A stretch of DNA of 63,307 nucleotides, filler included, from Klebsormidium nitens (Eukaryota > Plantae > Klebsormidiophyceae), in assembly GCA_000708835.1 (NCBI GenBank). It is 5 parts of 5 records of this genome, joined end to end, with 100 filler letters (N's around TTAATTAATTAA, not from the genome) between each part and the next. Parts side by side here need not be neighbours in the genome. Positions count along the whole stretch, not along the records: positions 27,738 to 42,810 come from DF238022.1; 4 more parts are not named here. One strand, written 5' to 3'. Of the stretch, positions 27,638 to 60,969 are shown in pieces. How positions within the stretch are numbered: position 1 is the first letter of the stretch; every line of letters begins with the position of its first letter. The position numbers and the translations under genes are program-made. The notes beneath the pieces were generated by a model. It was not told where the DNA came from. It searched no databases and saw only the letters and a program-made list of their open reading frames with translations.

Positions 27638-27737
27638 NNNNNNNNNNNNNNNNNNNNNNNNNNNNNNNNNNNNNNNNNNNNTTAATTAATTAANNNNNNN
27701 NNNNNNNNNNNNNNNNNNNNNNNNNNNNNNNNNNNNN
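27638..27737. other. Artificial contig spacer
   Basis: 44 N + TTAATTAATTAA + 44 N. Confidence 0.97.
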
Positions 27738-30700
27738 ATTGTAAACTTTGTTTATGGAAACCTTCCGCACAAGATCTTGCGATTTTGATCCTGAGCGAAC
27801 AAGCGCCGTGCATTCCTTCAGAAGACCTTGCATGTGGGTCGGACTTTTTCCCAAAGCTGCCCACAGGTTACTGAAAATGCAAACAGGTGTCTGCAGCTGC
27901 TGATTCTCGAGTCATTCCACCGATGCTCAATGCACAATCTCTGTCATTGAGGCTAAATTCACAGTTCACAGGGGGCTACCTTAGGTCTTCTCTTGGTCCG
28001 CCATGATCACCGTCTCACAATCTCTCAAACTGAAAGCACAAGGTGGACCAAGCAAATGCATGCGGCTATAATGATAGCGGTCCTTTATGCGCATGCAAGA
28101 TAGCTGAAGGTTTCCACGTTAAACTTAGCATGTGGGAATATGTGAAAAGTGACATGCGGAGCATCAGAGTCTTACCGTAGATTGAAATTGGGTCTTATGA
28201 CCAACTAATACGTATAATAACAAATCACAGTAAATACAAAACAGCGCGTTGGTCAAGCCAACTCAATGTCAGATCGAATACCTTGTTGACACACGGCCAG
28301 ACAAAAGTGGACAGGGGTTTGGAGGCAAATTTGACAGAATGTATGCCACGTGGGACACGCACTGCATGCTGCATTGAAGGGTGATCATGTCAGCGAACAA
28401 ATCCAGGCCGTACGATATCGTCCGTAATCATACCATACGCTGAGCATGACGTGACCCAAATGCGGTAGTTGGATGGGTGCCCAGGCCCGCTAGAGCGACT
28501 CAATGCGACTCGTCGGCAACCCTCCAACCCTCGCCGCAGTGACCACCGTCTGTAAGGAAACCCCTGTTTAAAACCGGTTGTGGCTGAATCCTCGCCATAA
28601 ATGAAGTGCGCAACGCGGGATTTGAATCGGCAGAGTACGACGTAAGTTTTTATTAGGTAACATCAGCACTTTTTAAATGGTGCCCCGAGTACCATGATCC
28701 TCCAGGAGTTGATGACGCTTTTGGAGCTTTTCTGACAGGCGAGTGATGCGGGTTCTCAGGGAAGAGGGTGAAAGATTAATGAGAGGGTTGCGGTGATGAA
28801 TTAAACATTGAAGAAAAACTTAAGGTGGCGACGTGGTTGCCTGACAATGATCCGAAAGGATGCCTGAGCAAAGGGAACCCTAGCAGATTCTGTGTTGCTT
28901 CTGAAAAGCTGCAGAAGTAGGGCACGGTTACGTCACAAGGATCGTACCATGTATGGTCCGCCATGTATGTTCCACGTAATGTAGAGCAGTTTAACTTTGT
29001 TCAAAAGCTTTAGTCACTAAGATTCACGTGCGTGGAATCGACGGCGCGGACGGTTGGTTGGCTGCGATGCTACCGTCGATGAGAAAGAACTGTTATCCGG
29101 CGTATACCGTAGTTCGGATTTTGCAGATCCTAGACTGGCCAGGAGCCGCCTCCAGTGTGCTCCGGCGTCAAGGCACCGATGGACCCAAAGATGCACGGAG
29201 GCTGGGGCTACATACATGTAGGATATATGTGACGGTGGTTGGCGGCCCGGGGCTTGGCCGTGCGAGCTTTTCTGATAGCGATATCCGATCCACCTTGTCT
29301 CCTGACGCGTGATAAATCTCCTACCTGCTTTTAACACGGGATCTTGCGGTTGAGATAGAAGTCGAATAATTAATTCATAAAACACCGTTGCGAAAATGTT
29401 CATGATTAGGCAGCCACTGAGCAGGCAATAAATATGCAAGAACAAGAAGAAGAACAAGAACGAGAGTTGGCCGAACTTAATGTCATATGTGGAGTGCCAC
29501 AGCACCTCAAGAGTCGAACCTCACTAACGCGGCCCGCTCCGGCAATCATAATGAGATCGCCTCGGCCAACGAATTCGGACATCCGAAAGGCTATACTAGG
29601 TAGACGCCTTGCAGTACATGTGGTATCTAGGTACGACATTTCATCAGCAGGCTGGAAGGCCGCCTTCAGGGCTTCTAGAACAACAGGAAACTCAGCATTT
29701 TGCGTTCCTCACATGGTCCCTTTCACATTGCTCGATCCCAGGCCCCATGCCTCATGAGGCTCTTGGCCCTGAGTCTATGAGGAACTTCAAGGGCCATGGC
29801 CCTCAGTGGGAGGCGGTCGAGACCAGATGGTCCAGCCAACTGTGACATTGCTCATCCAGCAGTCCAGGTTCTGAATTTTTGACTTTGCGCTTAATGTCCG
29901 TGCTCAGATTCTCTTCGATCAAAGAGATTGTAGCACAGAACAGCGCGACTCGATAAGCGAAAGCTGCACCGGGGGCGCCGTCTTTCACAGTTATCCAGGA
30001 TTGCTGCAGAACGCTCAGCATAGGACTTACATTATGCTAAACTGCATTTCCTTCTTTGGCTAAACCAGGAGAACTCATCAAAGAACAGGTTCTCAGACGT
30101 GGTTGCCCTGTTGGCTGCTGGCTGCTGGCTGCTGCCATCAATCAACGACTCTAGCTGGGAGCAAACCCCAATGAAGCAAGCTAGATACAATTAGCGACAG
30201 AAACAAGGCTATCACTGATAGGCCTAGGCAGACATTATTTCAAAGCAAAGATCAATCCTCTTAGTTTTCACCACCTTTCCGCGGCACTAGACTGACACCA
30301 GTGCTTTTGAGTCCATTCTACATGAGATTTTAAATTCAGATTCAATGGACAGAGATCAGCCGTATGACAGTTCACCCAACAGGCGCAGCAGAATGGACGC
30401 ACTGCCGTTTGGCCATGCAAAGTGTTGGTCAGACGTTAGGCTCCTTCGCTTGGGTATCATGGTGAGTTGGAATTTGGCTGTCGCGCTTTCTCCTTAAGAT
30501 TGATGTATAGAAACCATCTGAAACCTGGTCAGCAGCTGGTCGTTTCAAAGTTTGTAAGAGTACCGAATTAAGTTCCCAAAGCTGTGAAACTGAATGTGGA
30601 AAACACAGCTGCTAGACGGAAAAGGAGAATCTATGCTTCTCTTAAAATCTCAGAATTGCTAAGGAGGCGCAATTGGTGTGTTAATGTGCTACAGATCAAA

Positions 30701-31136
30701 TGGAGGCAGCCTTAGAATTTTGGGGGCTGTATAGCATAAAGCCAACTTATGCGCAGCTGAAGGTCAATTGCTGTACAACTCACCACCTTCATGGCATGAT
30801 ATCCAATGTGGTTGCGTGGGACGTCTGGATGGAGTCGCACTACAGGGTTAGCGCTGTGTAGGTGGTGCTCTAGATTCAAGCTTTTGAGCTCCCAATGGAA
30901 GCTCTGCAACAATTCATTTAATTCTTCATATGCTCAGCAATCTGAGCAATCCTCATCTTCATGAACACCACACGAGCCGAAGTGGAGCATTCCAAAAATG
31001 CCTTCAGGCTACTGCATTTCCCTTGCTTTGGCCCTGAGTCATTGATTGGCACCACTTGAGGCCAACCGCTGACTTCTAAGGAGTCTGATTAATCACTCAA
31101 AGTAGACCAAAGCTGAATATCTTGACTTTTCCCCAG

Positions 31137-34100
31137 GTTCTGCTGGCAAGTCTGCTGGCCGGTACCACGACCATCACATTTCACTTCACACGCGCCGCCT
31201 CCTCGACCTACCTTTCGAGCCTGGTGCACTCCTACCAAGGAGAGATCCTTCTGCATATTTCCAGTAGCGTCTCTCAGCTGCTGGACAAGGCAGAACCATG
31301 CGGCACAAGCTTTGCGCAGTATCTTGACCTGATTCACAGCCCAGGCCTCAACCTGACAGTAGATCAAAAACAGGATCTTACAGCATCCTCCCTGAGAAAG
31401 ACGTTCCAGAGCTGCAACACAGTCTCTGGCCTGGGACTCACCACGGAGGAGGGGCCCTACGTGGTTGTCAATTCCGTTGACAATGCAACGAGCCCCTATG
31501 CTAACACAAGTCTGCTGTGGACCTTTGCAAACCAGACCCTGCCCAAGGGCCAGGCTCCCCCACGCTATGTAACGGTGAGCCAATCACAGGACGACAGGTA
31601 TACTGTTTTTGACTGCGTTTTGCCTGCGAAATTGGAGAAGCCGGAATTGACAATGGGAACCTGTGTGTACAAATGGGCCGTGCTCTTGTCTTGTCCACGC
31701 TTAAAGCTTGCAGATTGCTTGCCATGTTCGGAGCTTCGAAGGCCTTTGAACTTCTAAGGGCCGGTGCTCTACATTGAGCTCGACTTTTGGCAATAGTCCA
31801 ATTCTACCTCTCATAGAACGAGCCAGCACTTTGTGTTTTCGTCTCTTTCGTTTGTGACTTAGCACGAAGTCATCGATTTTTCGTTCAGTAGGGACCTTAC
31901 CAGCTGACTATGCGCAGAATTAATCTTAGGCAACCCAGCAACAGTGTCCATCTGTTTCAGACAAAATTGGTCAAAATTCTGGTTTTTGATCGACTGGGGC
32001 CCTTCCGAGATAATTCTCGTCACAAGGTGGTCAGTATGTTCTGCTTTCATCTAACTTGCGAGACCTGACAAATGATTCAGCTTTTAGAGGCACCTGAAAC
32101 AAAATAGCACTTGCAGTAGTCATACTTGTCTCTGTGTCTGTGCAGTATGTATCTCCAGCTGATGGAAGCTTCGTTGCCAACGTCACTCCTGACGTCCCTG
32201 TCGACATCCGCAGCCGGCTCTTCTACCGAAGAGCATTGAGTAGCCCTGATGGATTAGCGGTCCAGATACTTGTCGGGGCAACACGGCAGCCTCTTCTGGT
32301 CGTTGCCAAGCGTTACACGCTGCCAGGATCCACCATGGTTCTTGGGGTTATTTCCAGTGCGCTGTATCTGACAGCCATCGGAGACTTCGTCGAGGGGCTT
32401 GATCTGAAAGGGGGCGACATGTTTGTACTAGACGGGACGACGCTCGTTGCAGATTCGGTGCACGACTACCGCCAGGCCAATCAGTCAGGAACACCGACCT
32501 TGCTCGAAGCGAGCCAGTCGAGTAGCCCCCTCATCAGGGAAACGTTTGCACTTCTCCCGCCGCAGTTGCCTGATTGTGACAAAGGCCCAATACAAGCACG
32601 CCTCCAGGGGGGGCGCTACAGCATCGCGTGTAAAGATATAGCTTACACAGGGCTTTCGCTCAAGCTGGTGACGATTCTTCCAAGGAAGGCCGTCTATGGG
32701 AAGCTTGACGAGCAGCGGCGGGATGCCACTTACATCATCAGCTCAGTGACAGTTGGCATCTGTGGGCTGGGTTTTCTTGCTATTATATACCTGACAGACC
32801 CTATAAGTAAGGCCGTGCGGTTGAAAGCGGAGCTGCTTCGGAGTTTCGAGGCGAAGAGGCAGGCCGAGGCGAGGGAAGAGTTCAAGACAAAATTCTTCGC
32901 TAAGACCAGGTGAGCAGACTCTCTACTCTTCTCGCTCGATTCAAAGGCCATCAGGAGGTGGGAAAAGTCCTGCGGAGTTTGTTGGACGAGCTGCATTGGT
33001 CCTAGAGCGATGACATCCTGAACCTAGTATGAAACTCGCATTAACAGCTTTCTGCGGGGCCCTTTCTTAGGATGCGCCAAGAAGTGCTTCTACTCAAGCA
33101 AAGGTCTTGCTGCTTGACAAAGCAAAACATATGTTGCTTACCAAGTTCTTTGAGCCCTCTCAGGGAGCCCGCCACGTCAGCTGAGCTTGCTTAGGCAGCC
33201 TTACTCTGCAAACGCCGCTCACGAAGTATTGATGTAGCACAAAATTATGCTGCAAACCTGAGCTTCCTGGCTCGTTATGGAGAGTTCGCCTTTCTGTGCT
33301 CATTTTGCGAAGCAAACAGACTGTCTTAAGCCTATCAGAACTGAGGATGAAGGCAGAATATACTGTTTGCAGTCACGATATCCGGACTCCCTTGGCCGCG
33401 ATGTTGGGCATACTGGACATCATCTTGGAGTCAGATTTGGAAGCGGAGCAGTCAGTCCGGGTGGCTCAAGTCAAGGAGTGTACCGTCGGTCTCCTGAACC
33501 TGCTCAACGATATTCTGGATTTTAGCAAGGTGCGGATTCGCTCATCGCGCAGGGTCTGGACATTATTTGACCGAAAACGGACATTCAGTCTTGGTTTGGG
33601 CGTGTGGGTGCTTCGAACTTACATGTTTGAGTGTAGGCAATCAAGTTATATCGTCGTCTGATCTCCATGTCGATACTGTGGATCGATTGGAGAGTTGCTC
33701 ATGTGAACCGCATCGCACAGGCGTCTTGTGCATGTCTCGGACATGTTGCCACCCTGTATCGTTTTTTCTCAAGGTTTCGAAAGATCCGTACTGCGACCGG
33801 TTCTTCCTGGACAGGTCTCGGAAGCGACGCTTGGTCAGACGCCCTGTCTGCGGCGCCACTTGACCGCGTGCTGTACAACTAGGAAGTGCGATTTCTCCAT
33901 CTTCATCGCTCTCTATTTTGAATCACGTGCAGATTCAAGCTGGGCATCTGCAACTGGAGCACGTGGAATTCGACCTAAGCAATCTACTGGAGTCCTTGGT
34001 GGACGTTTTTACAGTACAGTGCACTATGAAAGGTGTCGAACTCGGTTTGGACATGCCAGGTATGTGCCTTTTAGGCATCTTTGGATCAGCCGAGGAAGTT

Positions 34101-37100
34101 TCAAAATTGTCATCTTCTCACCTTGTGTTACCCGTAACTTCCAGAGCGCGGTTGAAGGATCTGTATCTATGTTTTTCCCTGCGCTTTCAAGAGTAAAGGC
34201 AATCTTTATCTGCGTATGCTGAAGGTCAGGTTGCTAGTATGTTCATTGGATACCTTCCTCGGCATGCTGGCAACTTGAGAATTTGGAGGCTCTGGACCTC
34301 ATGTGAAGCTATGAGGTGTTGGTTACTTTACAGAGATCGTGAGCAACTTCCATAGAAGGTTTACCATCGTTAGGGAACATTAGGAGATATGGAGGAAGGC
34401 TTGAGAGGATCAAGGATACTCAGAAACGTACCAGGGGTTGAGAGGCGTGTTTTTGCGAGGTCAATCAAGTTGCCCTTACAGGAGAGATTTGTAGTCTCTT
34501 CAGGATGGAAATGAGGAATTCGCTTCGTTCTCTTACAGATCTTATCCCGCTAGTTCGTGGCGACCCTACGCGCTGTCGCCAGATCTTCATGAACCTTCTC
34601 AGCAACAGCATCAAGTTCACAAAGGTAATCTACCCTTCTTGAGCTTCGTACTACATTTGCAGAGGCTTACCACTTGCAGGGTCATTCAGCAGAATTATGA
34701 AGCATATTTGCGCAGCCTGGTGTAATTATGTCGCGCCCTCGTAAACTCTGTGAGGACAACCTTGAGTGTGCCCATAGAGATTCTTCAAATTGCTCTTGGA
34801 AATGCTGCAGCGTTGCTTCAAGCGGCCGCTGTCTCTTCGATTCAAACGGACTGCTTTAAGTTGTTAAACACATTTTTCAGTTCTGGACTAGCTCTGAAAT
34901 ACTTTGCTGTAGAAAGCAATCACAATAGGGCTAATTTCAGAATAATAGCGGCTTAAAGCACCCTCTCAAGATCGAGCACAACGGAATATTTCGAAGGCTG
35001 GAAAAGTATCGATTTTAGGGATTGATTATGTACCTTTATTACACTTGGAGCGGCTCAGTGCAATTAAGAGCAGACATCCCCAGTCCTGACCAGCGGCTCC
35101 AATTGAAGCGCTCACATGTACTTCGAGGCGGCAAGTCAACAGATGCTCGATGCAAGTCTTCTCTGCAGATTCTCAAGAGCACTGCAAAAACGTGCTGCAT
35201 TCTCAAAAACATTGACACCCTGCATCTCCCGTCTCGTCGCTTTCCTCCTGTCAATTGCAAATAAGCCGGTTTCAAACGCAACTGTCGCCTGTTCTTGGCA
35301 GGGGGGCTACATCCTCATCCGCTGCTACTTGGAAAACGACAACCAAAGCCCTCGTGACTCTCCTCGCTGGTCCATCTCGGGGCGAAGCCCCTCCCATTCC
35401 TTGACCTCCCCACTATCAGTGAGCCCACTGGTTCGTCTGCGGTTCGAACTCGAGGACTCCGGATGCGGCATTCCGCCGGAAAGGCGCGCTGTCGTTTTCC
35501 AGGACTACGCCCAGGCGGAATTGTCCACCACGCGCGAGCACGGGGGAACCGGCCTTGGCTTGGGAATCGTCAGAAATCTTGTCGAAATGATGGGGGGCTC
35601 GATCGCAATCGCCGACAAAGTCGGCCCCGGGACGCTCTTCCGCTTCGACCTCGCCCTCGCGGCCGCGCGGCCGCCCCTGCTGTCGCCGCCTATATCCCGG
35701 GGGAATCCCCCCGTGCACTTCAACGTGGTGCTCGGCATCCCGAGCTTCCTCACCCGGTCGCTCTCGGCGGCGTCCATGCGGCGGCACGGCGCGACGGTGG
35801 TGGAGGCACTGTGCTGGCGTGACGTCATCGAAGCGCTGAGCAGCCTTGCGGAGCATTCGCGGGACCCGGGGCTAGCCACCGGGCGCGCTCTCTCGCAGAG
35901 CTGGGCGTACGGCGACGCGCACCAACCGGGCGGGACACCAGCCCCGGCGATCAGAGTCCGGCGCACACAGTCCATGTTATTCCGCCGGTTTCCGTCAGCG
36001 AAACGATCACAAGCGCCGGCGGTAGTAGATCTCGAAGCAGGACAAAGTGTGCGCAGCAAGGATAGGTTCTCTGCGCCGGGGGGGGGCTTTGCGGGCGTTG
36101 AGACACCCTTCAGGCCGCGGTCGCCGCCTGCTGCCGCGGGCTGCAAGGTTGTTGACTGTGCGATCCTTGCGGTCTCCATTCTCCCGACGGACTTGACCAT
36201 GGAGGAGTTGGAGGGATACCTGGCGCAGGTTCATCATGCCCTTGGGAATTCCGGTACGACGGCTGGCCCTGTTTTTGTTATAGATTCCGGACACACCTTG
36301 CGGAGTGTGAAGATTGCAGAGCGAATCGTGCAAACTTCACGAAACTAGCTGGGTCAAACAGCGATGCCCTTCAAATTGGGGGAAGTGAGTGGTCAAAGTG
36401 GCTCCTTGGGGAACGGGCCACACATCCCGAACCGTCTTTCAGTCAGCCCTTGACCAATTTGATCTCGTGCTTTCATTCCACACGTCCCGGGTTCTGTCCT
36501 CTCATCATTTGAAATGAAGTAAGATAAAATGTATAAGCAGCAGCAAACAGTCACACAACAGTCACACAAAAGACGCTAACGGACTGGGGGCTTGCTCGAT
36601 GAAATCTCTTACTCTATTTCGTGCTGACGAGTGTGTTTATCAGTATCTGGATGCTGACCACGTTCTTGATATCTGCATCGACCTATAATTTTGCGCCGTC
36701 CTTGCTATTGTTCGACTCTCAAGGGCACTGCACGCCACGAGCTCCCCACATGCTATCAATATAGGCGAACGACCGGCCTGTGCATCGCTAAGCCTTCCGG
36801 GCTTCCGTTCGCCTTTCCTCATTGTCAGCATCCTCTTTAAAATGGCTCACCATACGTTCGCGACCTTCTTTATGGGCAGGACTTCAGGGCGGGGCGCACC
36901 TACCGGTCGCATGGGTGGTGAAGGCTTCGACGCCGGTCTGCGTCCGGGACACGCTGCGAAAGGCGGGTTTCTTGGCGATCGCCACCAAACCACTGTACGA
37001 ATCCAAGCTGCAGCGCCTGCTGCACACGATGGCCGGAACGGAACCAGGCCCAACGGCGGAACCGGGATCCCCCAAGCCGCTCGGCAGCCCGGGAGAGAGC

Positions 37101-38166
37101 TTCAGGCAGGAAGACGAGCCGCGGGCCGGGCAATCGGGGCATCCCGTGGCAGGGGTCGACAGAGAGGGCGCGGAAGGGGCGAAACGTCGAGGCGTGTGCG
37201 CGCGCGTGGGACGAGATGGACTGGACGCGTTCTTGGCGGAGGAACCGGAATTTGAACAGGTGGACAGAGCAGCGGTTTTAAGCGTTCAATCCAAGACCCA
37301 AACGGAGGGTTTGAACCTCCCTTTGAGAGGCCGGACGGTTCTAATCGCCGAGGATAACGTCCTTCTGCGGAAGCTCGCAGTCCAGGCGATGGCGAAATTG
37401 GGTGCGCGCGCCGTCGCGGTGGAGAATGGGCGGCTGGCCGTGGACGATATCGAGCGGCGGGCCGCGGCCGGCGAGGAGAGATATGACTTCGTGCTTATGG
37501 ATTTCATGGTGAACACCTGTCTCACCGGTTGCCCCGATGCTGGTTCGTGTTTGGTTCGGTACTCTTCCTTCAGACGATGCGTGCTTCAAACTGCTTAGTA
37601 CTTGCAAGCAGCCTGGGGCGTCTTGAGCGCCGCTCAAGCGCGGGGAGAGTTCCGCACAATCAACAGTACAGGCTGTCTATTGCTTCATCAAAAATTTGAT
37701 ACGAGGTGATTGATGTCCAAATCGCTGTCGGACAAGCTGGAGCCTGATTTTGATGATTCTTTCATTCACGGTTCTGGAATCTGCTATTGGAAGAGTACCG
37801 AAGCCAGGACTATTGACCCGAGTCAAAGGCCAGACGTGTTGTTTTCAAGCTCCTCCTGCCTTCGGCGCGCAAGCCTTTGAGAAGCTAAAGAGCTAGACGA
37901 AACCGTCAGTGTTTGCCTTTCAGATGCCCGTCATGGACGGTCTCGCGGCGACGCGGCTGGTGCGCGACCTCGAGCGAGCGCGCGGGATGGGGGACCACGT
38001 GATCATTGTCGCGCTCACGGCCGGCACATCGTGCGACGACCAGCGCGCGTGCATCAAAGCCGGGATGGATGTCTACCTCACGAAGCCCATTGATACATCC
38101 ATGCTCCTTGCGAAAGTGCTGCCGCTTCTTGGGGACAATAGCTTGCGTGTACAGATAGAGCATTGA
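31137..38166 (+). CDS. Hybrid histidine kinase, AHK1/CKI1 type (2 TM, Cache-like ectodomain, HisKA, HATPase, pseudo-receiver, receiver); 5' exon(s) uncertain, possibly from ATG 29434
   Basis: TM1 VLLASLLAGTTTITFHFTR; TM2 YIISSVTVGICGLGFLAIIYLT; H-box FFAKT-S-HDIRTPLAAMLG across an intron; N-box GDPTRCRQIFMNLLSNSIKFT; G-boxes EDSGCGIP, HGGTGLGLGIV; AHK1-like VAWVV..AGFLAIATKPLYESKL; receiver VLIAEDN..FVLMDFM|MPVMDG..YLTKP. Confidence 0.9.
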
Positions 38167-39449
38167 GAGTGTAGGAACTGATTGCTTCAATCGGAAAGCG
38201 AATCGCGCGCACGCTCGAGAATGTTACGAGTGAGGTTGAATCGGCTCCGGTTTGCTGCGAAATGCAGAGCGCACAAATCTTGCGGGACGGTCCTGGTGCC
38301 GTAAAAGTTGGAAGAACAACCCGCCGAGAGTTGATCCGCCGCGTGTACTGAGTTTGACGCGCAGACATCTGGGGGTTTTTGGGACGAGAAGTATTTTGTG
38401 TTTGAACCGAATAGAAGTCCGAAAACAGCACGCATTTTCATCCACAGGAGTCTGACTCGGTGGTTTAGTTTCACTGGATGGGTTCGACTGTGCCAGAGAC
38501 TCACGGCCCGGACCGGAACGTGATGTAGCTTGACTCTGCTGCAATTCTCGACGACCACAAAGCCAGAGTGTTCTTAAAAGTGCATGTTTTACACACCACT
38601 CGATTTGAGTGTCGGCACAAACTTGAAAACTCGTTCCCCGTCAGTATCTTGATCGAAAGTATTATGCAGGCGGGACCGATCTCGAGGTTTTCAAAGCCTC
38701 AGGTCGACGGTGCCCTTGCATTGAATAAGACAATGAGTACGGTTATCCGGGAACGCGCGAGCGCACCAAGCGGGCTGCGGCGCTTGATCAGACATCATTC
38801 TACTCACTGTCAATGTGAATCGAGTATCATAATCATGACTCAGACGAGAGGCACCCTAGATTGCTTGAAGCATTGAAATACATGCGACCGCGCCCTTGTT
38901 CAACCCACACTGAAGCTAACCAGACAGAGCGCCCCACTAACGGCCCAGGGGCAAGTACACCGTGCGCAGTAGTGGAAAAACGCGAAGTTCGGAGGCGAGG
39001 AGAGGAACAAAAGGAAGAGACCTAATAATAACGAAGCGGTCGGTCTCCTCGTCGTACAAGACAAGGTGGCATTCCTCAGCCAGGAAAGACCGTACATACA
39101 GCATGCAAGAGGTCTGAAGCGGGCCAAGAAGTAGATGTATTCATGTGAGGGGATACCGGTTGAGCGAGGCTAGAACGTTTGACTAATGTACATACTAACC
39201 GAGCTATCGATCTGCAATCCTACACATGCTTGCTCAGGCTTCGGCCGTGGACCACTAGCGTTGACATACTACAAGGATGCGAAGGTATTGTCAATGCTCT
39301 AATGTGACGCTGGTATGACATTCCTGGTTGGGCAAGCACTTCGACAGATAATAATTACTATAACGACATTGACTATCAATACCTGCACGCTACCTGTCCG
39401 ATCTAGGCTGCTTCTGAGAATCCGCCATATATTCTTCTCTCAACTGCTT

Positions 39450-42400
39450 CTAGCGGCGACCAGCCCTTCGCTCGTCATCTGTTTCTAGAAACACTCCTTG
39501 CACCATGTCCCAAGAGACACTCTCTTTCTTCAATCGCAAACCCTTGTATGCCGTGAACTGGTTCATCGTAGCATGATGCCTGATCCTTTCCCCTTTGTTA
39601 AAACCCTTCGCCTTCAGATCCTTCGTCAGGGCAGACGGCTTGCACTTCCCCTTCTGCTCTTGGTTGAGATACGCGTTGTATGCCGCGTGCATGACAGAGG
39701 TTTGGATCAGGAAGCTCTGTCCAACCTCACATTCCGACTTTATGAACACCTCCAATGGGTCGTTACTAGCATACAGCTCCTGCTTGCACTGCTTCAGATA
39801 TGCGGGCTGGTCCCCGATGCCACCGTTCTTCGAATTGGTGACTTGCCCGTTCACCAGCCAAACCAGAAGTTCCTGCTGCGCTTCGGGGGTCTTCATCTGG
39901 TCCTTCAACGTCAGATCCCTCGGACGAATCCTCGGGTCCCCTTCCACGTAATTCTCTCGCTTGACGAAAGAACGCTCCAACGGGAAGTATATCAGCCGAT
40001 CCTCCATCGCAGCATCCGCAAAATCAAGAAGCGGCGGACGATTGGACGTCACCACAAACTGCAAAGAGAGCGAGCACGAGCGCGTCATACACAAGGCTTC
40101 AAAGGCCCAGTACCAGGTCTCTCGTTCATCAGAGAACAGGAGCCATCTTTCCGACCCGTCCCCCAGCAAAGCTGCGTTAATTCGGGGTTTCCGATTTTGG
40201 TTTGTGCCCGGTATGCTCATGGGACGTCGAGCACGGTGTCGAAACGCCACTATAAAGGCGATTTTCTGCGAAGGTCAAGTCTGTGGGTCGCCCTAAGATG
40301 CGATCCAACCCGTAAGATCTTCATCCAGCGGTCTAAATACTTTCCAAGGCTTTCGCAAGGACGCTCAATCTGCACGGATAAAATACAAGGACTCAAGCGA
40401 AGTCAATGCATTCGAAACACCGTTGCCTAAGCTCTAGAGTAGCGAAGCGTCCCTTCTCGAAAAAGACGTTGATCCACGACAACCCGTATCATTGTCGGAG
40501 AGGATTTCGAAGGCAAACCTTGGCCGTCGGCTTGAAAGTCGCATCCGCACCCCTCTCGTACAGATCCCTCGCGTTTATGTCCGCCCCCCCAGTCATGTAC
40601 TTCACTCCTGCATCATCCACCCGGTCCATTGCGCCGCTCTCGTCGATCAACACCACGCGCTTCTTCTTCGTAGCTGCCAAATCCGTGTTCGCACCACCCC
40701 TGGAGATCTCCCCCTGCCCCGCAGCCCTGAAGATGAGGCTCTTGTTGCCTTGGAGGAAGAACAACCCCAGCAAGTCTCTGACAGCCTCCATCAGCAGCCC
40801 CTTGCCTGCACGACACAGCAGGGGGGGGCTAAGCACTGTTCACCCGGGTTCGCTGTCCCGCCTCTTTCACTCCAGGTTACATCCTGCGGATCTGGGCATA
40901 TCGATGAGGTGCAGGCTTACCGGAGGCTGTAGGACCACATATGTACACCAGGACCCGCTCATCCACGTCGCCGGTTAGCAAGTACCTGCAAGAAGATTCG
41001 CCGTCGTCGTCAATATATCCATTTTGAAGCGGGCGCCCGATGGCAGACCAGTGCGGATGTTTTCATCAGAATGCACGTGCCCGAACACCAGCTGCAGAAG
41101 GAGCTCACCCCAGTACCCGCTGCAGGTAGGACACGATCTCCGCCCGCTCCGGGTACACGTCCACCATCCACGCGTCCCTCAAGATCTTGTCGACCAGCGG
41201 CGTTGGGTGCAGGAGGCCATCTCGAGGATAGTCCGACCCGAGCGTAGAAGAGAACAGGTACCGGGGGTGATGAGGTTTCAACGTGCCGTCCTTCAGGTCG
41301 ATGACCCCGTTCTTGACGGGCAGGGCCCACTTGCTCACGTAGTCCAAGTCCCGTGCGAATTCGGGTCGTAGAAGCGGTGCCTGGCGTACTTGATCACACC
41401 ACCGGGGCCACCGGCCCCATTCCAGCGGGGCCGCCTCTTCGGGAGCAGCTTTGCCAGCCGCTTCACCGCATCCTCGTCGCCCTCCTCCTCAGCCGCCTTC
41501 GCCAGCTTGGCCGCTTCCCTGTACGCCCGGTCGGTCGCTTGCGTCAGCTGGTCGGCTATGATGTTGTGCACCATACCGCCCTGTGCCTCCGGGATGTCCT
41601 TCTCGAAGACCCGCGCGTTCCAGAAGTAAAAGCCGGCACCGCTCCCGCTGCTGCTGCCCGCCACCCACTTGATGCGCGGATCCCCAGCGTAGAGAGCTCG
41701 AAGGAGGCGCGACCCGCCATCCGCAGACAACCACAGGTACCTTGCCGCCATGTCGAGCGGAACCCGCTTGTAGATGCTCTGGTCCGTTCCAGAGACGGGC
41801 CCGATGCCACACTCCCCCACGACGATGCCCGCCAACGCAGGATCCTCCTCCAACTCCGTCCTTGCACGCCGGTCGCACACCCCGCCGTGGCACCGCTCGG
41901 TGAATCGGTCCGTCTGGGGATCGTAATAGAAGGAAACGCTGTTGCTGCCCCTGTGCGCCACGTCGTGACCGCACACCCACCCCCCCCTGAGGCTTGTACT
42001 CGAAGCGCCACTCGCCACTCTCCATGCGCTCCCTCTTGTAGTACACGTAAGAGCGGCTGCCCCGGCAACTCAAGATAGCGTCCAACCGGGCCACGACCGA
42101 GGCGGACAGCTCGCCCTCGGCCACCGGGATCGGCCGCGCCGTCTCACCCTCGACCCCGAGGGCAACCCCAGCCCCTCTCGCAACCCTACTGGCTGGCCTC
42201 GGCCCCCGGCACGTGCCCTCCCTCTGAGCGGGGGCCTGTGAGTTCAGCAGCTCGATCAGCACTGGCGGCATGGCGGGCAGCTCTCCCTTGCCCGGAATCG
42301 GCCGGAGGGCCTGGTAGTACCGGGTCTCGCCCGTGGTCTTGCTGAAGGTGATCGACGTGGGGGGCAGTATGATCAGACCACCGTCGCCCCGAAGGTCCAT

Positions 42401-42617
42401 GCTCACGCTCTGCCCGTCCAGCACCATCTTCACCATGTTGCTCATCTGATTCGCCTTCCACGGCTCGATCGCCAGCCCCGCCCGCACCGACTTTTCGTAG
42501 CTGAAGAAGGCGTGCCTGCCGCCCGACTGTGTGAGGGTGTGATCCAGGCTGCCGAAGGGGATCCCGGCAGAGTCGAGCAGCTCCCTGTAGGCCGTCATCC
42601 CGTTCCCCAGGTCCACA
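39450..42617 (-). CDS. Virus/plasmid-type bifunctional primase-polymerase (Prim-Pol) + D5/P4-family SF3 helicase, spliced, 5'-truncated, two single-base frameshifts
   Basis: Prim-Pol motifs TQSGGRHAFF, MDLRGDGGLIILPPT; D5_N LPVKNGVIDLKDGTLKPH; Walker A GPTASGKG, Walker B VVLIDES, motif C FVVTSN. GT-AG introns 41108-40986, 40920-40806 and 40518-40059 each preserve the frame. Frameshifts at ~41980-41987 and ~41363-41366. Confidence 0.88.
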
Positions 42618-42810
42618 CTACATTGACCATCCCGTTGTCAAAAACCGCACTTTAACTAGGTACATTTCGGGGTCCCGAACTTTCCGCTGGCTGGGGCTGG
42701 CACCGTCCGATGAGTGCCACGTATAGGGACCGAGTCCAAGTCTGTCAGAATTGCACTTGTACACTGCGGCAGTACTTTCTCCGTCGAGTGTACTCGGAAA
42801 ATTCAAGGTT

Positions 42811-42910
42811 NNNNNNNNNNNNNNNNNNNNNNNNNNNNNNNNNNNNNNNNNNNNTTAATTAATTAANNNNNNNNNNNNNNNNNNNNNNNNNNNNNNNNNN
42901 NNNNNNNNNN
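42811..42910. other. Artificial contig spacer
   Basis: 44 N + TTAATTAATTAA + 44 N. Confidence 0.97.
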
Positions 42911-42999
42911 CGGTCCTAAATGCCCGTATCTCAACAGAGGCTATCAAGTGAGATTGCTAGAAGGAAAATCAAAAGCGTAGGTCCAAACACGGACGAATC

Positions 43000-45900
43000 T
43001 GGATTCCGTAAGTAGATTCTGAAATCGAGTGAATTTGCCGCATGACAACGCATCTAAGAAAAAATTCATTCTTGCTGAAAATAACAACCTGTTAGTCGAA
43101 TGTCATGGCGTGCAGACATCCAAAAAATAGCTCACAAATATTCCATTATGCGTGGACCACTTACCGCTTTCGCAGTGCCCTTGTTGATTTTCAATACCAC
43201 AATAGTATTGTCAATGTGCAAACGAATGTGTTGACCGTTCAATGCGGTGGAATACTATAATTGTTCGAGAATGAAAACCACAGACATTTCGTGTATGTGA
43301 ATAGGTTTGACCGGCTTGGGTGCATCCGAAAAGAGAGCTTGCAACGATGAAAGGGAGAATGTCCCCATGAGAAAGGCACCATAGCCATAGCTGGAGGAAG
43401 TATCGGTCGATAAGTCATGCAAAGAAAAGGGTTTAGTAGCATATAAATCAGTTCGACCGCTAATTTATGGCAAAATTGTTGCCACATTTCACAATTGAGA
43501 AGAAGATTGGAGAAATGCGAACATGTTAATGGGATCGGATTTCACTCCATATCACTAAATCAACGTTGAAAATTACGGCCGCCATATAAACCTTGCAAAT
43601 CAATCCAAATTGCCATTCAAGTTTCTCGATTACAACGCGGAATACTAGCATGCTGCAAGGTTTCATGACCACGCGAGGAGGAGAAGCTAAACTTTCACAA
43701 TTGAGGCAAGCTTGCATAGCCACGGAATTCAATGTGATACCAAGAAACTCGATGCCTTGACATGGAGTTATACTTTTATTCGCCCGTATATTGACTCTTG
43801 AAGCCGAGTTTACGTAGAAATTTGCGGAGTGCTCAAGATGCAACCAAGCCACTGCTTGATCGACGCGATTGAGGAAGTCGTCTGCATAGACAATGATGCA
43901 ATCAAAACATAGCCGTTTCATCATCTAACAAATGCTTGCCCGACGCAATTGCATACCTCACAAGCATTTTTCGAACCGAACAGCAGGAAACCGTCTAAAT
44001 ACATATCGTCCGAGCAATCGTTGGCCAACAAAAGCCCGATTTGTTTTCAAAAGGCCAATCTGTTGCAATCAGACAGATTAGTGGGGACGTGACGATAGAC
44101 CGCTTTAATGTTCGACCTTTGCCTTGTAGCACCCACTGCTCATGAGCCGCACTGTGTCATCTACAAAGTGTAATGAAAAGTTGGGTTGCGTCTGCGCATC
44201 ATAAATTTAGCGAACGACCAAGCGGCCGTGAAACATTGTGAATTAGTCGTACAATCGTTTCAATTTTAGGGACCGGGCCAAAACTGCGCCCGAAAGCTGA
44301 TGTTCGATTGTCATCAAGGAGAAAGATTGGAATGGCAATAATATCAGAGTGGAGCGCAGACTGAATTTGGTCGCGCGCAATGCAAACCAAGTTGTACGTA
44401 TAACATTCGAACTGCGCGATAGCCGCAAAGGCTGGGGCGTAAGCCCAAGTCGCCGCAGAGGCATTTGTGCCCGCGAGCCGGGGGCAAGCCGTACCCAAGA
44501 CACAGGTTTAGTTGTTCCACTGGTCAAAGCATCGTTGGGTGGTGGACCAAACGAAGCCATTGCTTTGGACCGCGGCGCAAACCAGAAAGGAAAAGGACTG
44601 AAAGGATTTGCTCAATTTTTCACTTTAAGAGGCTGCCATGCCGCAAAGTGCTCCATGCGCGTCTGGCAGAGACTGTCGAACGGGGTGCCGGTTGCCCATT
44701 GGTTCGTCGTGTGGTGAGAAATATAAAAATCGAAAAGATTTCCAAAGGCCATCCTTGTCCCCGCACCTCGCATTCAAGACAAGCGTCATGCATCAAATCT
44801 GATATTGAGCATCTTTTGGGCCCTAAATCCCACTGCACGGCTGTCTGAAGGCGCTTGGATGTCTTCACGCTGGCAGGTCGGACCACTTTGTCTTACGTCT
44901 CGCCACATCGCCTGACATGACATGTCGGATAAGTCGCGATTGCGCCTCAGTGACACTATCTAAGACGAGCTTTTGAGGCGCTTTTCCTTTGGAGGGAAAG
45001 CACTTTTAGAGCATTGAATGAGAAAATCATCAATCAAAAGGGGCTTTGGGGGCTGAATCGGGAAGAACGTGTATAGTCGAGGCCAACCGGCCCGACTGGA
45101 GCAAGTTGCGGGCTGGAGTAGTCGAAGGCGCCCCGGTCAGCGAAAATGTATCCTCCGGAGCAGCGACTGGCGCCACAAGACATTCGACGGCGGCGCGCTC
45201 AAAATGCCATGCGTGGGAAAACGTGCAGGGGGCATCAGGACAGGCGGTTGGGCCACTAACAGAACATGGGCATAACCCGAGGGTGGTGCAGGCACGAACT
45301 GAGCAAATCAGGGGGTTCCAAGAGGGGCAACATGTTGCACTTGAGGCCGAATAGGGTCAGGGGGAGGAGAAAGGGGGGGGGGGGCGAGGGGGGGAGCGGG
45401 AAATACACTTGCTGGGATCGTGAGATTACCGTGGCCCATCACAAGCATTTCTCGATGCATCATTGCATTGCTCTTGCATTCAAAAATGCATATATAAAGC
45501 GATCAACACTTGGGTCATATTCCAAGAAAGCCAACGGAGGCGGAGGAGCCGTTGTTGCGAGAGGAATACAAGAGATGGAAGGCCTGGGGACATCATCTCC
45601 GGCGGTCGCACAGATCGAGATGGGCCATGGCTCGTGTTTAGAAGCATGAAGGAAAAGGGCATAGGCCATTGCCACCCTCACCTGCAAATGCCGCAGCAAT
45701 ATTCAACTGAATTGGACCGAGTCGATCATCAATGGTGCGGGGCGGAGGTGGGGGAGTGGAGGAGAGAGGCCATTGCCTAACATATTGTACCCCCGTCCAT
45801 AGTACGGATTAGTAGGGGGGAGGCAAGGAAGGGATCAGAAGGCCTCCTCCCACCATAACTGCTAGTCTAGGACCACATGACTGCGATGGCTGCACGGGCA

Positions 45901-46099: not shown

Positions 46100-47846
46100 C
46101 TAAAGTTGAGGGCTGAAGCGGGGTCCTTGGAGGGGATTCCTTGAAGATGGAGCGGTGGCTTATGCCGCCAGCATAAGGCTACTCGAGCTCAGAGAAGGGC
46201 CGGGGAAGCTCGGAGGTAAGAGGCGGGAGCTCAAACCCGCCAACGTGCTATTGTTCTGGCAATGTGTGCCACATGAAGGGAAAGTGCAGGTGCGTGATGC
46301 GGAGTGCCGCAAGTGCGGCAAGAGGGGCTGCACGGAGGCGGTGTGTAGGCAGATTGCGCGCGCAAGTGGCCGTGCGGAGGAGAGAATTTCTGCGGAGGAT
46401 GCAAATGGAGTAGCTTTTACGGCGTGGGGCAACGATAGGGATGTGCGCAAAGGGGTGTGGATTGTCGACTCGGGCAGCACCCAGCATGTTACGGCCGAAA
46501 GGAGCCACTTCACGAGCTACAAAGAGCTCGTGCGTGACGAAAAGATCGTGAGGATCTGTGCTGAGTCTCTAATCGCAGTGGGCATTGGAGAAATGGAGCT
46601 CAAGTAGAAGACCCCAAGCGGTGTGAGTCCGGTAACGTTGTGGGAGGTTTGGCACGCTCGGAGGGCACATGCGACTTTGTTCGCTCTGACGAGAGCGATC
46701 GACGCAAGAGCACGTGTGGTGGTGCTCGAGGGAGAACCGCCCAAATTGAAACGGACAATCTGGTCCGTATGGAGGCAGTCAAGCGTGGGGGACTGTGGGA
46801 AATTGAGACCGTGAGGAAGCAGAGAGCATTTTTTGCAAGGGGTCAGGTAAAGGGGAACCGGGTGTGCGCCACGGCAAAGGGGCCGATAAAGCGGAAGCGT
46901 GGTGAGAAAGACGGTGAAGGTCGTGGAGCTCGACCTAGACGAGTTAGACAACGAAAATGGGGGCGTCGAACGAGAGAGGAACTTCTGTGGGGGCGGATGA
47001 GGTGCCGCGTACATATCCCGAAATGGTCGAAAAAGGGGCGGAGTTTGAAGTGAAGCGCGAGAAAGATGCGCACGCGCCCGCGACGGACCGCGGTTGCGCC
47101 GAGCGCACAGATTCAAAAAGAGGCCAATGTGGGCCGATTGTGGAAATTGTGCAAGAAGTTGTGAAAGTGTTCGAGGAGATCGGAAAGGGCAATGAGAGCC
47201 CAAAGACGGCGGTAGAGAGCGAGCCCGCCGGTGTCGAATAGGCAACAGAGAAGCCTGTAGTGGAGTCCAATAAGTTGGAAAGATATTCCGCAAAAGTGCG
47301 ACGGGAGCCCGCGAAGTGGTATCGAGCAAATGTGGGAGCAACAGCGGAAGCCGTGGGAGCCGAAAAGCCGGAGCACGGAGTGGAAAAGACGTCGGTCGGA
47401 GAAGAGCGACGCAGTGCGCTACCAAAAGAGCAGAGATGGCAAAAGTGGAGGCGTCTGGGTGACGCCAAAGGCAAAGAAGACAGCCCGCAAGAGAAGCGTG
47501 ACGAGTTAGAGGCCTTAGAGTAAATTCGTCTAAGTGGAAGTGTTAGAATTTGGTGATTATGATCAGCCGGATTACTATGTGATTAGGGTTCGACCCGAGT
47601 TGAGTTTGAACTAGTGAGCGCCGGCGTGCACGAACGGCGGTTAGGCGGTTAAACCGTTTGGCGATTTGAAGGTTAGGCGGTTGAGAGCGGCCGTCAGTGT
47701 AAGCCGTAGATAAGTGCATAGAAGACTAAGATTGAGTGTGATTGTGAGCTAGGCTAGTAAGCCAAGTAGTTTGTGACGTTTAGGTTAGTAAGCCTAGTAG
47801 GCTAGTGAGCCTAGTGGAACGGAAGAGACCCGTAAGACTCTTAACA
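46100..47846 (+). mobile_element. Internally deleted Ty1/copia fragment with 3' LTR
   Basis: Degenerate knuckle CRKCGKRGCTEAVC, protease VWIVDSGSTQHVT, VGIGEMEL, post-integrase RYSAKVRREPAKWY, then an LTR. No integrase core, RT or RNase H. Confidence 0.75.
47541..47846 (+). repeat. Copia-type LTR (306 bp)
   Basis: Begins TGTTAG and ends TTAACA, directly after the Copia coding remnant. Confidence 0.65.
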
Positions 47847-48899: not shown

Positions 48900-49525
48900 T
48901 ATTTGTGTTGTCCTCCCACCTTGATCAAAGTGTTACTCCAGCAGACTGAAAGCGTCGATACAGGGGACTGGATTGGTGTCGAAAGAGGGGCAACGGAAGG
49001 CGCCTCACTTTTCCAGACGCCCACCGAAAGACCCTTGCGTCATCCATGTTGGAACCTCCTCTCCAAACCCCAAGAACTCCACAGCAGCGGCATACTCCTC
49101 CGGCAAACCCTCCAAGGCGCAGCTCCCTCTGAGACGGTTTGTCCCGCCGCCTACAAGTCTATCTTGAGCTTCCGGAATTCCCTCAGGTACTCTGCAATGG
49201 CTTTCCCCTTGGTCAACCTTAGACCCGTCAGCTTCTCTTGATCCGAATCATGCGCGCATTGCTCCTCTTCTCAAACAGTGTCCTCCAAATTCTTCCACGC
49301 TTTCTCCGCAATGGGTTCCCCCTCAATCAACTTCACATAAGCATCTTCCGTGTGGATCAGCATCAACCCCCTTGCTTGGCTTGACACTTTCCTTCCGTCC
49401 ACGGACTCCGGCTCGTCCAATGCACACAGCCATCCCTTGTATGCTAGAAGCCCACGAAACTTGGCCTTCCACGTTGACCGATTCTTACACACAATTGCGG
49501 ATTAGACACTCTGTCTCCCGCCATA
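48900..49525 (-). pseudogene. gag: Ty1/copia gag 5' fragment
   Basis: TWKAKFRGLLAYKGWLCAL..SSQARGLMLIH..AEKAWKNLE..LTGLRLTKGKAIAEYLREFRKL, with stops. Confidence 0.7.
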
Positions 49526-49584: not shown

Positions 49585-49885
49585 TGTTGAGATTAATGTT
49601 GGTTGACGGACAGATTGTGGACATTAAGAACAAAGAGAACAACTACTTGTAAGATTAAGATGAAAGAGAGTGAGGATTTGACACATTACGATGAAAGAAG
49701 TTGAAGACCCGGTAGACTAGAAGAGAAGGGATAAAGGGCTTGGCAGAATTAATATGAAAAGGATTGAGTGCTTGATAGATTAAGATAAGAGGACTTGAGT
49801 GCTTGGCAGATTAAGATAAAAGACTAGTTGAGTGCTTAATGGTTTAAGATGAAAGGGATTTGTGTGTTTGGCAGATTAAGACCAA
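49585..49885 (-). repeat. Probable 5' LTR of the minus-strand Copia, containing a 31-33-bp degenerate tandem array (49738-49885)
   Basis: Terminus reads ..CTCAACA on the minus strand upstream of gag. At least five units like GCTTGGCAGATTAAGATRAAAGGATTGAGT; cut by the contig end. Confidence 0.6.
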
Positions 49886-49985
49886 NNNNNNNNNNNNNNN
49901 NNNNNNNNNNNNNNNNNNNNNNNNNNNNNTTAATTAATTAANNNNNNNNNNNNNNNNNNNNNNNNNNNNNNNNNNNNNNNNNNNN
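49886..49985. other. Artificial contig spacer
   Basis: 44 N + TTAATTAATTAA + 44 N. Confidence 0.97.
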
Positions 49986-52900
49986 GTGACTACCCTAGGT
50001 AGTAATCTGGGAGTCTCAGGAGCAGTGACTGCGGCAGGTGGGTTGACCTCGTCAAACGGGCTCAACGTGAGCTCGGGAATTACGAGCTTGGGAAGTAATC
50101 TCTCCGTGACTGGCCCTATCGTGTCGGTAGCAGGAATCACCTCTTCCAACACCCTCAATGTTACAGGCACGGCCACTCTAGGCAGTAACTTGGCGGTCAC
50201 GGGGCCAATCTCTGCCTCTGGTGCGACTCTGAGCGCTGCGCTCGCCCTAGGATCCAATCTACTAAATACCACCGGCGACATTTCCACTTCGAGCAACCGC
50301 GCTGGTTCGATCTACTCCACGACGGAAAACACCAACGCTCTGACGATCAACAGCAACCTGACCGTATCAGCGGGCAGCACCACCAACATCGGGACGGATC
50401 TGAGGCCCTCGAGCAACATCGCTTACGACATCGGCACGACTTCCAACAAATGGCGGACGGTGTATGCCAGCAACTTCAACGCAGCCGGAGGCACACTGAG
50501 CGGAGACCTCAATCTCAATGCGAACAAGCTGCTGAGTACTGGAGATATTGCTACGTCCAACGCTCGGATCGCAAACGCGTACCTCTCCTTGGCAGACGTC
50601 AGCTACATCACGGCTGGCAATGCCACAGTCAACGGTTCGTTGCAGTGTACGTCCATCGATACTCAGAACAGCAACATCAATCTCGGTACGGGGGCCATCT
50701 ACGCCGGCAGTCTCAGCACGAGCAACGCGATATCCGGAGGAGCTCTGATCGTGACCAGCCTGAGTACTTCGGGTGGTGCCATCAGCGCCGGAACGATCAC
50801 CGGCACGAGTCTGAGCGCGGGGACGGGCTCGGTCAATGGAGGCACTGGCAACTTCAGCGGAAGCGTGACGGTGAATGGCGATCTGCAAGTCGGAGGAGTG
50901 TTGAACTACATCAGCAGCACCACTCTGCAGGTCCAGGACAAGAACATCGTCCTAGCTACCTCGTCCAACGCCACGGATGCCCTAGCTAGTGGTGCGGGGC
51001 TGTACATACAAGGGGCCGGTTATTCGAACTCCAACAACGCCATCTCGTGGACGTGGAATACCGGATCCAATGGCAACTACTGGCTGCCGAGGGGAGGAAA
51101 CATCTCTCTCCTGGGAGTGGCCGGATCGACCAAGATGGTCAGCCTGGTCACTTCTGCGGACGGGTCCTTCAAACTCCTGTCGGACGATGGCTCCACGGCG
51201 ACGAGCACTGCGCTCTTCGGGACGCCTCTCCTTGCAAACAGCTCCAACCTGGACGTCGGCAGCACTTCGAACGTATGGGGAACGGTCTACGCGACCACCT
51301 TGGGAAACTCCAACAAACCGATAACTTCTCTGAACGCGACTTCCATCACCAGTGGTACGATATCGAGCGGGTCCATCAACACGAACAACTCCAACATCTC
51401 TCTAGGTACGGGCAGCATCACCGGAGGGGCCGTGAGCGGAACCACTGGATCGTTCTCCGGGGGCATAACGTCTTCCAACGGGCTCACGGTGACAGCAGGC
51501 AGCTCCACCTTCTCCAGCAACCTAGCAGTGACCGGCCCTATCGTGACGGCAGGGGGCTTGACCTCGTCGAACGGGCTCTCCGTGACGTCTGGGAACGCAG
51601 TCTTCGCAGGGGGGCTGACGTCTTCCAACGGGCTCAACGTAGCTTCGGGCCCGGCGACCTTCGCCAGCAACGTCTCCATCTCAGGGCCAACTTCTTGTGC
51701 CTCTCTGACAGCCTCCGGGACCGGCACCTTCAGCAGTAACGTCTCCATCACGGGACCGACTTCCTGCGCGGCTTTGACCGCGTCCGGCACTGGAAGCTTC
51801 AGCAGCAACGTCTCCATAACCGGACCTGCGTCGGTGGCTGGCCTCTTGACGGCATCCAATGGCCTGACGGTCTCGGGAGGTTCCGTATCCCTTCCGAGTG
51901 GGTCCATCGCGGCCTCGTCCGTGGGCAACCTACCTGCGTCCCAGATAACCTCGGGCACCTTCTCAGTGGGCTCGTTCGGAAGTACGAACATTAGTACCAC
52001 GGGAACTCTTGGGGCTGGAGCGAGCACTCTCGGGGCGCTGACCTGCACGACCATAAGCACCGGAAACAGCAACATCACCGCTGGAACCGGCACGATAACG
52101 AGCGGACAGCTCAATCCCACCACTACTGCGACTTACGACCTGGGATCTTCCAATACGACGTGGAGGAACGCCTATCTTTCCGGCACGATGACGGCGAGTA
52201 ATTACGTGGGCCTGCAGCGAAAGTTGTGGAACGCAGGGGCGCTCGGCATCCAGTCGATAGCCGCCAACAGCTACTTCAAGTTGGCTACTCTGCTCGATAG
52301 TGGTAATACCGCCAGTGCACAGGGTCTTCGGATCGTCGGACAGCTGGGTGGTTTCGGGAACACGCAGACGGCGACGGTAGACTGCACCATAGTCTCTCGA
52401 GGCAACTTTTACGTGAGAGGCACTATCCAAGGCTTCATTTCAGGGGCCAAGCAGCGCGCTGACATCGTCGTCTACATAGAGACTAACGGGCAATATAGCG
52501 TCTATTATTACAACCCCGCGCAATTCTCGGTTTGGGACCTCAGCATCGAGGGCGGCTACGGTACGATCCTCTACGAACCCACCTCGACGGCCATCACTGC
52601 TCCCACAGGCACCCTCGTGACGTCATCTGTGCTGAGCATCCTCACTACCTCATCCGAATTCTCGTCAGGAACGGTGACGACGAGTTTCAACAACTTTAGC
52701 TTTTCGAATTCCGCATCGTCAGGGAATCCCGTTTGGAATCTAATCGGATCTTCAAACTCGGGATCGATACTGAGTGGCAGCATCACCAGCGGCCAACACA
52801 ACCCATCAGCCACGGCGACGTACGACCTGGGAGCATCTGGCACGGCGTGGAGGAGTGCTTACCTCTCGAGCAATATCAACGTAGGTGGTTCTATCACGGG

Positions 52901-57607: not shown

Positions 57608-57667
57608 CGATCAGGCCTGGCGTTTCCTCCACGAAGAAACTTTCCGGGCATACTCAAAGGAGCGTGC

Positions 57668-58459: not shown

Positions 58460-58540
58460 TCTATTCCCAGACCCTCCCTCTTTACATCGAAGACCTAACT
58501 TCCATCAAGATGTCCTCGGAGAAAGATGCAGCTACTGCCT

Positions 58541-60080: not shown

Positions 60081-60082
60081 CT

Positions 60083-60883: not shown

Positions 60884-60969
60884 CTTCAGCTGCTAGTACC
60901 TCCTGATAGAAGATTTTGCAGGATCGAAACGTACCAACCATATTATCTGGCGTCTGAGTATACGAGCCA

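Follow-up and report, generated by a model that had tools for sequence, protein, structure and literature searches.

Fusions of a prim-pol domain with a D5 helicase are widespread among phages, plasmids and transposons; a selfish element of Ostreococcus was noted in 2008 to have such a fusion (PMC2579912). Polinton-like viruses (PLVs) and virophages have replicases of the AEP-S3H and TVpol-S3H types (PMC4642659, PMC12220804). Spliceosomal introns occur in related settings: 25-72 of them have been predicted in endogenous giant viruses of green algae (PMC9693826), an active algal virus found in the latent state (punuivirus) has introns, with the mean length of 176 nt, in 61 of its 506 genes (10.64898/2026.10.09.758095), and Polinton-like insertions have been invaded by introners (PMC12166617). 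Giant-virus core genes are present in streptophyte algae (PMC5294986), the plastids of streptophyte algae have phage-type primase open reading frames (ORFs) (PMC4877394), and virus-related primases have been domesticated in trypanosomes (PMC10719067). No report of an intron-bearing D5/P4 primase-helicase was found in the literature, most subscription papers lying outside the coverage of the search. Here we describe a candidate gene of this kind in a 63,307-nt stretch of the Klebsormidium nitens genome (below, the window). By its helicase features this is a genuine D5/P4-type primase-helicase gene, as judged from sequence; it has three predicted spliceosomal introns and two frame breaks. With a probability of roughly 45%, we read it as a replicase, disabled only recently, whose source was a DNA virus or mobile element transcribed in the nucleus and not sampled so far.

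The window consists of five contigs joined by identical 100-nt spacers (positions 6705-6804, 27638-27737, 42811-42910 and 49886-49985); the order of contigs and the gap sizes across the spacers are not given by it, and adjacency there is not implied. The contig 27738-42810 carries the primase-helicase gene at its end, in the minus orientation; the gene terminates with the TAG codon at 39450. Its visible 5' end is only 193 nt from the spacer, and about 70 N-terminal residues, as well as any element border on this side, fall outside the view.

Among the described systems, the P4/D5 primase-helicases of phages and plasmids (TIGR01613; PHROG 1156, 6088, 1829; primases of Liberibacter and Gordonia phages) have the same order of the Prim-Pol, D5_N, superfamily 3 (SF3) helicase and winged-helix parts, and are the source of the best sequence matches (24-30% identity). 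Unlike these enzymes, the K. nitens gene has predicted spliceosomal introns, a eukaryotic host gene nearby and no phage neighbours; it has a Cys/His module where they have PriCT or HBD, and forms a long separate branch. The prim-pol/AEP-S3H replicases of virophages and PLVs (L011; PMC4642659, PMC12220804) share with it the Prim-Pol-type N-terminus, similar motif spacing, the INARDLYE-type motif B' and the eukaryotic setting, but they have PriCT_2, are encoded by intronless ORFs and are linked to capsid genes, whereas here there is no PriCT_2 match, the scores do not exceed 61 bits, and no capsid or ATPase gene is seen. The L011 locus (L011:1662-13406) is a virophage contig from lake sediment; its replicase has the composition Prim-Pol + PriCT_2 + SF3, and its major and minor capsid genes are of the Sputnik type. 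The D5 proteins of giant viruses (C962R of African swine fever virus (ASFV), poxvirus D5/E5, the mimivirus type) have D5_N, the SF3 ring and the winged-helix tail in common with the query, and ASFV C962R is its closest solved structure; in contrast, the two giant-virus D5 proteins scanned carry AEP_C962R and PriCT_2, while the query is of the Prim-Pol type, shows lower similarity to them and has no hallmark gene on its contig. Finally, the selfish element of Ostreococcus lucimarinus, likened here by description only, also joins a prim-pol and a D5-like helicase in one fusion, within the genome of a green alga, but introns are not mentioned in the accessible part of PMC2579912, unlike the three predicted here.

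When the two frame breaks are read through (with X at each), the visible gene encodes 821 residues, of which residues ~300-800 are colinear with D5/P4-type primase-helicases, with the identity of 24-30% over the Prim-Pol, D5_N, SF3 helicase and winged-helix parts. Downstream of D5_N, the SF3 ATPase has both Walker motifs (A and B), motif C and an arginine finger, and the Walker A Lys, the Walker B Glu, the motif C Asn and the Arg of the finger are preserved. All three helicase exons match TIGR01613, as fragments far under its cut-off. The winged-helix tail is seen in a Pox_D5 match (E=5e-4, below the Pfam cut-off), an Atlas match of 0.96 and a structural model matching C962R and the RFX winged helix. 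The model of the last exon, folded with 39 relatives, has the pLDDT (predicted local distance difference test) value of 87.9, and all five of its PDB matches at E<=0.001 are ASFV C962R chains. A profile search with eight sequences lists C962R, a 797-aa DNA primase (7OLA) and poxvirus D5/E5; the PDB searched by the single sequence yielded no homologue. The original prediction of a virus/plasmid-type primase-helicase is thus borne out by the colinear Prim-Pol, D5_N, SF3 and winged-helix parts (for D5_N, E=5.5e-10).

The visible part of the candidate Prim-Pol domain, with a Pfam match below the cut-off, starts within DxD (motif I), whose second Asp is its first residue, the upstream remainder being beyond the view; catalytic motifs II and III are present, with SGGRH and DLRG among the motifs seen. 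Its alignments to virophage and phage prim-pols are weak (probability 14.6). The Cys/His module is predicted to bind zinc. Its pattern was found once among 14 reference proteins, at an unrelated position, and no family match to it was obtained in the library scans. The single-sequence fold of the middle segment (pLDDT 41) gives no fold support, and the Atlas matches for this segment, below 0.9, are a lead only. The module may resemble the zinc finger of PrimPol/UL52; Pfam gave no such match.

The three predicted introns have the coordinates, lengths (123, 115 and 460 nt) and GT-AG ends that had originally been given, and homology requires them at these places; intron 2, as had been claimed, lies inside Walker A, splitting the Gly codon that precedes the Lys. 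With the introns removed, the C-terminal part of the gene is open for 403 codons. The positions of the PHROG 1156 profile continue across the exons (481-547, then a 22-residue exon, 570-656 and 660-829), and those of TIGR01613 are likewise continuous over the predicted introns. All open in-frame variants within +-24 nt of each junction were scored against a profile of the 14 reference proteins: the predicted junctions ranked 3 of 448 for intron 1 (a tie for best), 13 of 774 for intron 2 and 14 of 799 for intron 3; each was the top-scoring among the GT-AG variants, of which 2, 3 and 1 exist, respectively. The chance of such ranks is roughly 1e-5 (hand arithmetic on the variant counts). GT-AG ends at homology-required junctions, together with host-like acceptors, are consistent with U2 spliceosomal introns: the TGCAG acceptors resemble those of the host histidine kinase gene on the same contig, where 8/8 acceptors end in CAG. 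The introns, 115-460 nt long, compare with 403-677 nt in the kinase. Introner-like kinship among the three introns was considered and rejected, as they match neither each other nor the rest of the window at E<=0.1.

The first visible exon, 42617-41109, begins midway through the hhhDhD motif, as it would with the originally proposed fourth acceptor at 42618, and the codon bias falls off at this start; however, this candidate is a TAG with no pyrimidine tract, while 11/11 other acceptors examined end in CAG, and the place may be a breakpoint. For the piece 42618..42810, the odds are about even between the 3' end of an additional, fourth intron and foreign DNA at a breakpoint. It has no family match, including no recombinase, in four libraries, and none of 11 candidate donors for a 5' exon within the window yields a prim-pol N-terminus.

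Although exact restoration of the frame had been claimed, and the 403-codon C-terminal part is indeed open, the exon 42617-41109 contains two further single-base breaks, so that the gene as assembled has no continuous full-length frame. Both changes are evidenced by a switch of the frame rich in G and C at third codon positions (GC3) and by tblastn. Small introns are rejected as their cause, given no low-GC3 gap and the position of the second break inside a contiguous motif; mutual compensation of the breaks is ruled out by the stop between them, at 41489, because of which the gene as assembled gives no helicase. The density of breaks (2 in 2463 nt) exceeds that in seven other ORFs of the window (1 in 16,955 nt; conditional P=0.044), a set that omits retroelements and a broken MscS-like gene. 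Since the gene has no in-frame stop, GC3 of 0.80 (versus 0.69 in the spliced kinase) and the observed/expected CpG ratio of 0.92, with no CpG loss, any decay would be recent. In GC3 and intron lengths, its composition is foreign relative to the kinase. The original prediction left the choice between a domesticated viral protein and the replicase of an undescribed element; both are still entertained here, but the two breaks, which it overlooked, favour a disabled copy, in which the decay would be real rather than an assembly artefact.

If, conversely, both breaks are assembly errors near the contig end, the gene could be functional and derived from a virus or phage by domestication in the host; its product might be, for example, a primase-helicase of an organelle or of DNA repair, whose targeting peptide would be encoded in the out-of-view 5' exon. 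Three host-style TGCAG acceptors, the intact catalytic motifs, the lack of in-frame stops and the intact host gene convergent with it agree with such an origin, as does the position of the breaks at G runs, with a break of the same kind at 53190. Still, the kinase, on this very contig, is free of breaks over its 3513 nt, its GC3 and intron lengths are unlike those of the gene, and protein word searches revealed no homologue, a weak negative; we consider a functional host gene rather unlikely. Moreover, as endogenous and latent algal viruses carry introns (PMC9693826; 10.64898/2026.10.09.758095), introns do not show domestication. The kinase and primase-helicase genes are convergent, and 1.28 kb was measured from stop to stop, in agreement with the 1.3 kb stated originally.

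Word searches of the protein collection yielded no close homologue, as expected of a lineage-restricted element, and no homologue was found among viral contigs (with the last and third exons as queries) or plasmids. The best match is a bacterial locus (L104, 30% over 356 aa, 131 bits). The top BLAST scores are 94-131 bits for the best phage and bacterial proteins, at most 72 for the giant-virus panel and at most 61 for the virophage-like set; the comparison loci were gathered by motif scans and the group labels are our own, with the L011 family alone shown with a virophage capsid, and with phage-type neighbours at four phage-type loci. The tree comprises 34 sequences and 358 columns, with one lineage of giant-virus D5. 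Only every fourth of the giant-virus loci was kept, so that about three quarters of them are missing from it, as are four near-duplicates and the loci L100-L113. In this tree the query is a long solitary branch outside the clade of giant-virus and virophage-like proteins (support 0.988), which suggests an unsampled element. The phylogeny that had been proposed as a check sets the query apart in this limited tree, but approximately unbiased (AU) tests (5000 replicates, below the number advised by the program) do not reject its grouping with giant-virus D5 (p=0.24) or with virophage-like proteins (p=0.064).

The latter result is in line with an endogenous giant virus (or a virophage or Polinton-like virus) that left an ordinary relic here, its D5 gene having gained introns. 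Intron gain in such green-algal insertions has been published (PMC9693826; 10.64898/2026.10.09.758095), Prim-Pol + SF3 fusions occur in virophages (L011, with its Sputnik-type capsid), and the last contig of the window (49986-63307) looks virus-type, with a Peptidase_S74 tail-fibre-like gene and a metallophosphoesterase matching a giant-virus metagenome-assembled genome (MAG). However, this virus-like island is two spacers away and its genes are intronless, the scanned giant-virus D5 proteins have the AEP_C962R + PriCT_2 composition instead of Prim-Pol with no PriCT_2 match, and the scores of giant-virus and virophage proteins are below those of phage and bacterial ones. Such a relic seems unlikely.

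No partner genes were detected. Capsid, packaging ATPase and integrase families are absent from the Pfam scans of the window ORFs (33, 12, and 102 of 187 listed ORFs), Pfam being weak on divergent capsids, and so are the giant-virus hallmark genes (capsid, A32 ATPase, PolB, VLTF3), the contig ending 193 nt upstream of the gene. No terminal repeat of at least 25 nt was found, nor does any repeat of that length, the spacers excepted, reach the gene; the 3' flank has no terminus or repeat and no match elsewhere in the window, which also contains no second copy of the gene; and Rfam yielded no structured RNA matches (0). The lack of capsid, integrase and terminal repeats reported originally holds for these scans, but, with only 193 nt between the start of the visible gene and the contig edge, the absence of partner genes or termini on that side is uninformative. 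The partners could lie past this edge if the gene, itself intact and active, belonged to a replicative transposon of an undescribed kind that bears introns and lacks a capsid. The lone position in the tree, the phage/plasmid-like best matches, the unusual Cys/His module, the strong codon bias and the intact motifs would suit such an element, and a 63-codon stretch in the upstream piece (42618-42810, minus strand) resembles, by eye only, a decayed C-terminus of a tyrosine recombinase. But that piece has no recombinase match in the four libraries, the 3' flank shows no terminus or repeat, no second copy is seen, and both breaks would have to be errors; an intact transposon is very improbable.

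Several observations weigh against a disabled replicase of an unsampled element as well. The empty word searches carry little weight as evidence, the AU tests do not reject the two viral groupings, and no element gene or terminus is seen. Both breaks are at G runs, which makes assembly error a live cause; the break in the comparison set (53190) is itself a missing G, as seen against the internal repeats of its gene; and P=0.044 would weaken were the broken MscS-like gene counted. On the other side, the retroelement debris beyond the spacer (see below) would suit a disabled element, though the intervening spacers allow no link between the gene and either this debris or the virus-like island.

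Table 1. Features of the primase-helicase locus and its contig (window positions).
Feature	Position	Strand	Description
Contig spacer	42811..42910	.	100 nt: N44, stop-codon linker, N44; severs the 5' context of the gene
Upstream piece	42618..42810	-	193 nt from exon start to contig edge; TTGAC 24 nt upstream of TAG
First visible exon	41109..42617	-	C-terminal part of Prim-Pol (AEP), linker, Cys/His module, D5_N; two frame breaks
Prim-Pol domain	42305..42616	-	PF09250 positions 72-146 of 158, E=0.004 (below Pfam cut-off)
Frame break 1	41986..41993	-	Near 41990, run of G; shifted frame stops at 41489
Cys/His module	41875..41973	-	C-x5-H-x21-C-H-x3-C, at the place of PriCT_2 in several relatives; zinc binding predicted
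Frame break 2	41357..41362	-	Near 41360, G run, within the conserved FYD..F..LD stretch of D5_N
D5_N, C-terminal half	41168..41332	-	Pfam PF08706, E=5.5e-10
Intron 1 (predicted)	40986..41108	-	123 nt, GTGAGC..TTGCAG, phase 2, contains in-frame stops
65-nt exon	40921..40985	-	Runs into Walker A
Intron 2 (predicted)	40806..40920	-	115 nt, GTAAGC..GTGCAG, phase 1, in the Gly codon of Walker A GK
Helicase exon	40519..40805	-	Walker A Lys, Walker B, motif B'
Intron 3 (predicted)	40059..40518	-	460 nt, GTTTGC..TTGCAG, phase 0, immediately before motif C
Last exon	39450..40058	-	Motif C Asn, arginine finger, helical lid, winged-helix tail, stop
Hybrid histidine kinase (host)	30345..38166	+	9 exons, 1170 aa, intact; HisKA, HATPase_c, Response_reg; context and control

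The other contigs contain a mixture of host-type, retroelement and virus-like sequences. Beyond the spacer, the region 42911-45000 (minus strand) has decayed reverse-transcriptase and RNase H motifs, DIRS-like by eye only and with no library match; the DIRS element, if real, would cross the spacer and adjoin the primase-helicase gene. It is followed by Copia-type remnants at 46110-47600 (plus strand) and 49274-49495 (minus strand), identified by Pfam (Pol_BBD, Retrotran_gag_2), and by short degenerate 31-nt repeats (49654-49881). The last contig starts with an intronless gene of ~2,500 codons (49986-57607, plus strand), with Ser/Thr/Gly-rich repeats and a C-terminal Peptidase_S74 chaperone domain, tail-fibre-like; it extends past the contig start, and its frame is broken once, near 53190, by the lack of a G that its own internal repeats have. 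Three compact intronless ORFs (57668-60883) encode 263, 333 and 266 aa, the first two having no family match and the third being a metallophosphoesterase, whose two confirmed viral matches include a giant-virus MAG at 28%. Together with the tail-fibre-like gene, they look like an endogenous giant-virus island. The intronless, eukaryote-type MscS-like channel gene at 61306-63307 (minus strand), with a frame change and stop near 62150, is either a retrocopy in decay or a host gene captured by a virus. At the opposite end of the window, retrotransposon pieces (426-5575, plus strand: zinc knuckle, aspartyl protease, reverse transcriptase, gag) precede host-type genes at 7155-27000: a multi-exon exporter of the ThrE family, which is mainly prokaryotic and fungal, an epimerase, an F-box protein with a PI31-like N-terminus, and LysM-domain ORFs. 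The type of the histidine kinase, the style of the introns and other genes would fit a green, probably streptophyte, alga as the host.

We infer an element origin for the primase-helicase gene. As the replicase of a nucleus-transcribed virus or mobile element, its transcription in the nucleus of the host would have lasted long enough for introns to be acquired. By analogy with its family, the intact protein would be a one-gene replicase, in which the N-terminal prim-pol domain would synthesize and extend primers, the Cys/His module would likely bind zinc and the template, D5_N would form a hexameric collar, the SF3 ATPase ring would unwind DNA, and the winged-helix tail would grip it. The spliced transcript of the gene as assembled would encode the prim-pol part, then ~165 wrong-frame residues up to a premature stop, and no helicase. 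A broader and doubtful proposal is that the gene represents an undescribed family of intron-bearing, self-replicating eukaryotic DNA elements, with a phage/plasmid-type prim-pol-helicase and a zinc module of their own, or else a domesticate serving host or organelle replication; it would then not be a version of the giant-virus or virophage enzymes, and its nuclear stay would have been long enough for introns to enter Walker A and perhaps the primase DxD motif.

The present evidence is one broken and truncated copy, and every ingredient has a precedent. Still, a virus-type replicase with introns in its catalytic core would be a record of a long stay under transcription by the host nucleus, whether within a virus or element in latency or en route to domestication. 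The identity of at most 30% to anything retrieved, with the best scores to bacterial P4-type enzymes, may be a sign of eukaryotic DNA elements of a class not sampled so far; alternatively, this may be the second case, after the mitochondrial primases of trypanosomes, of a virus-type primase adopted by host replication.

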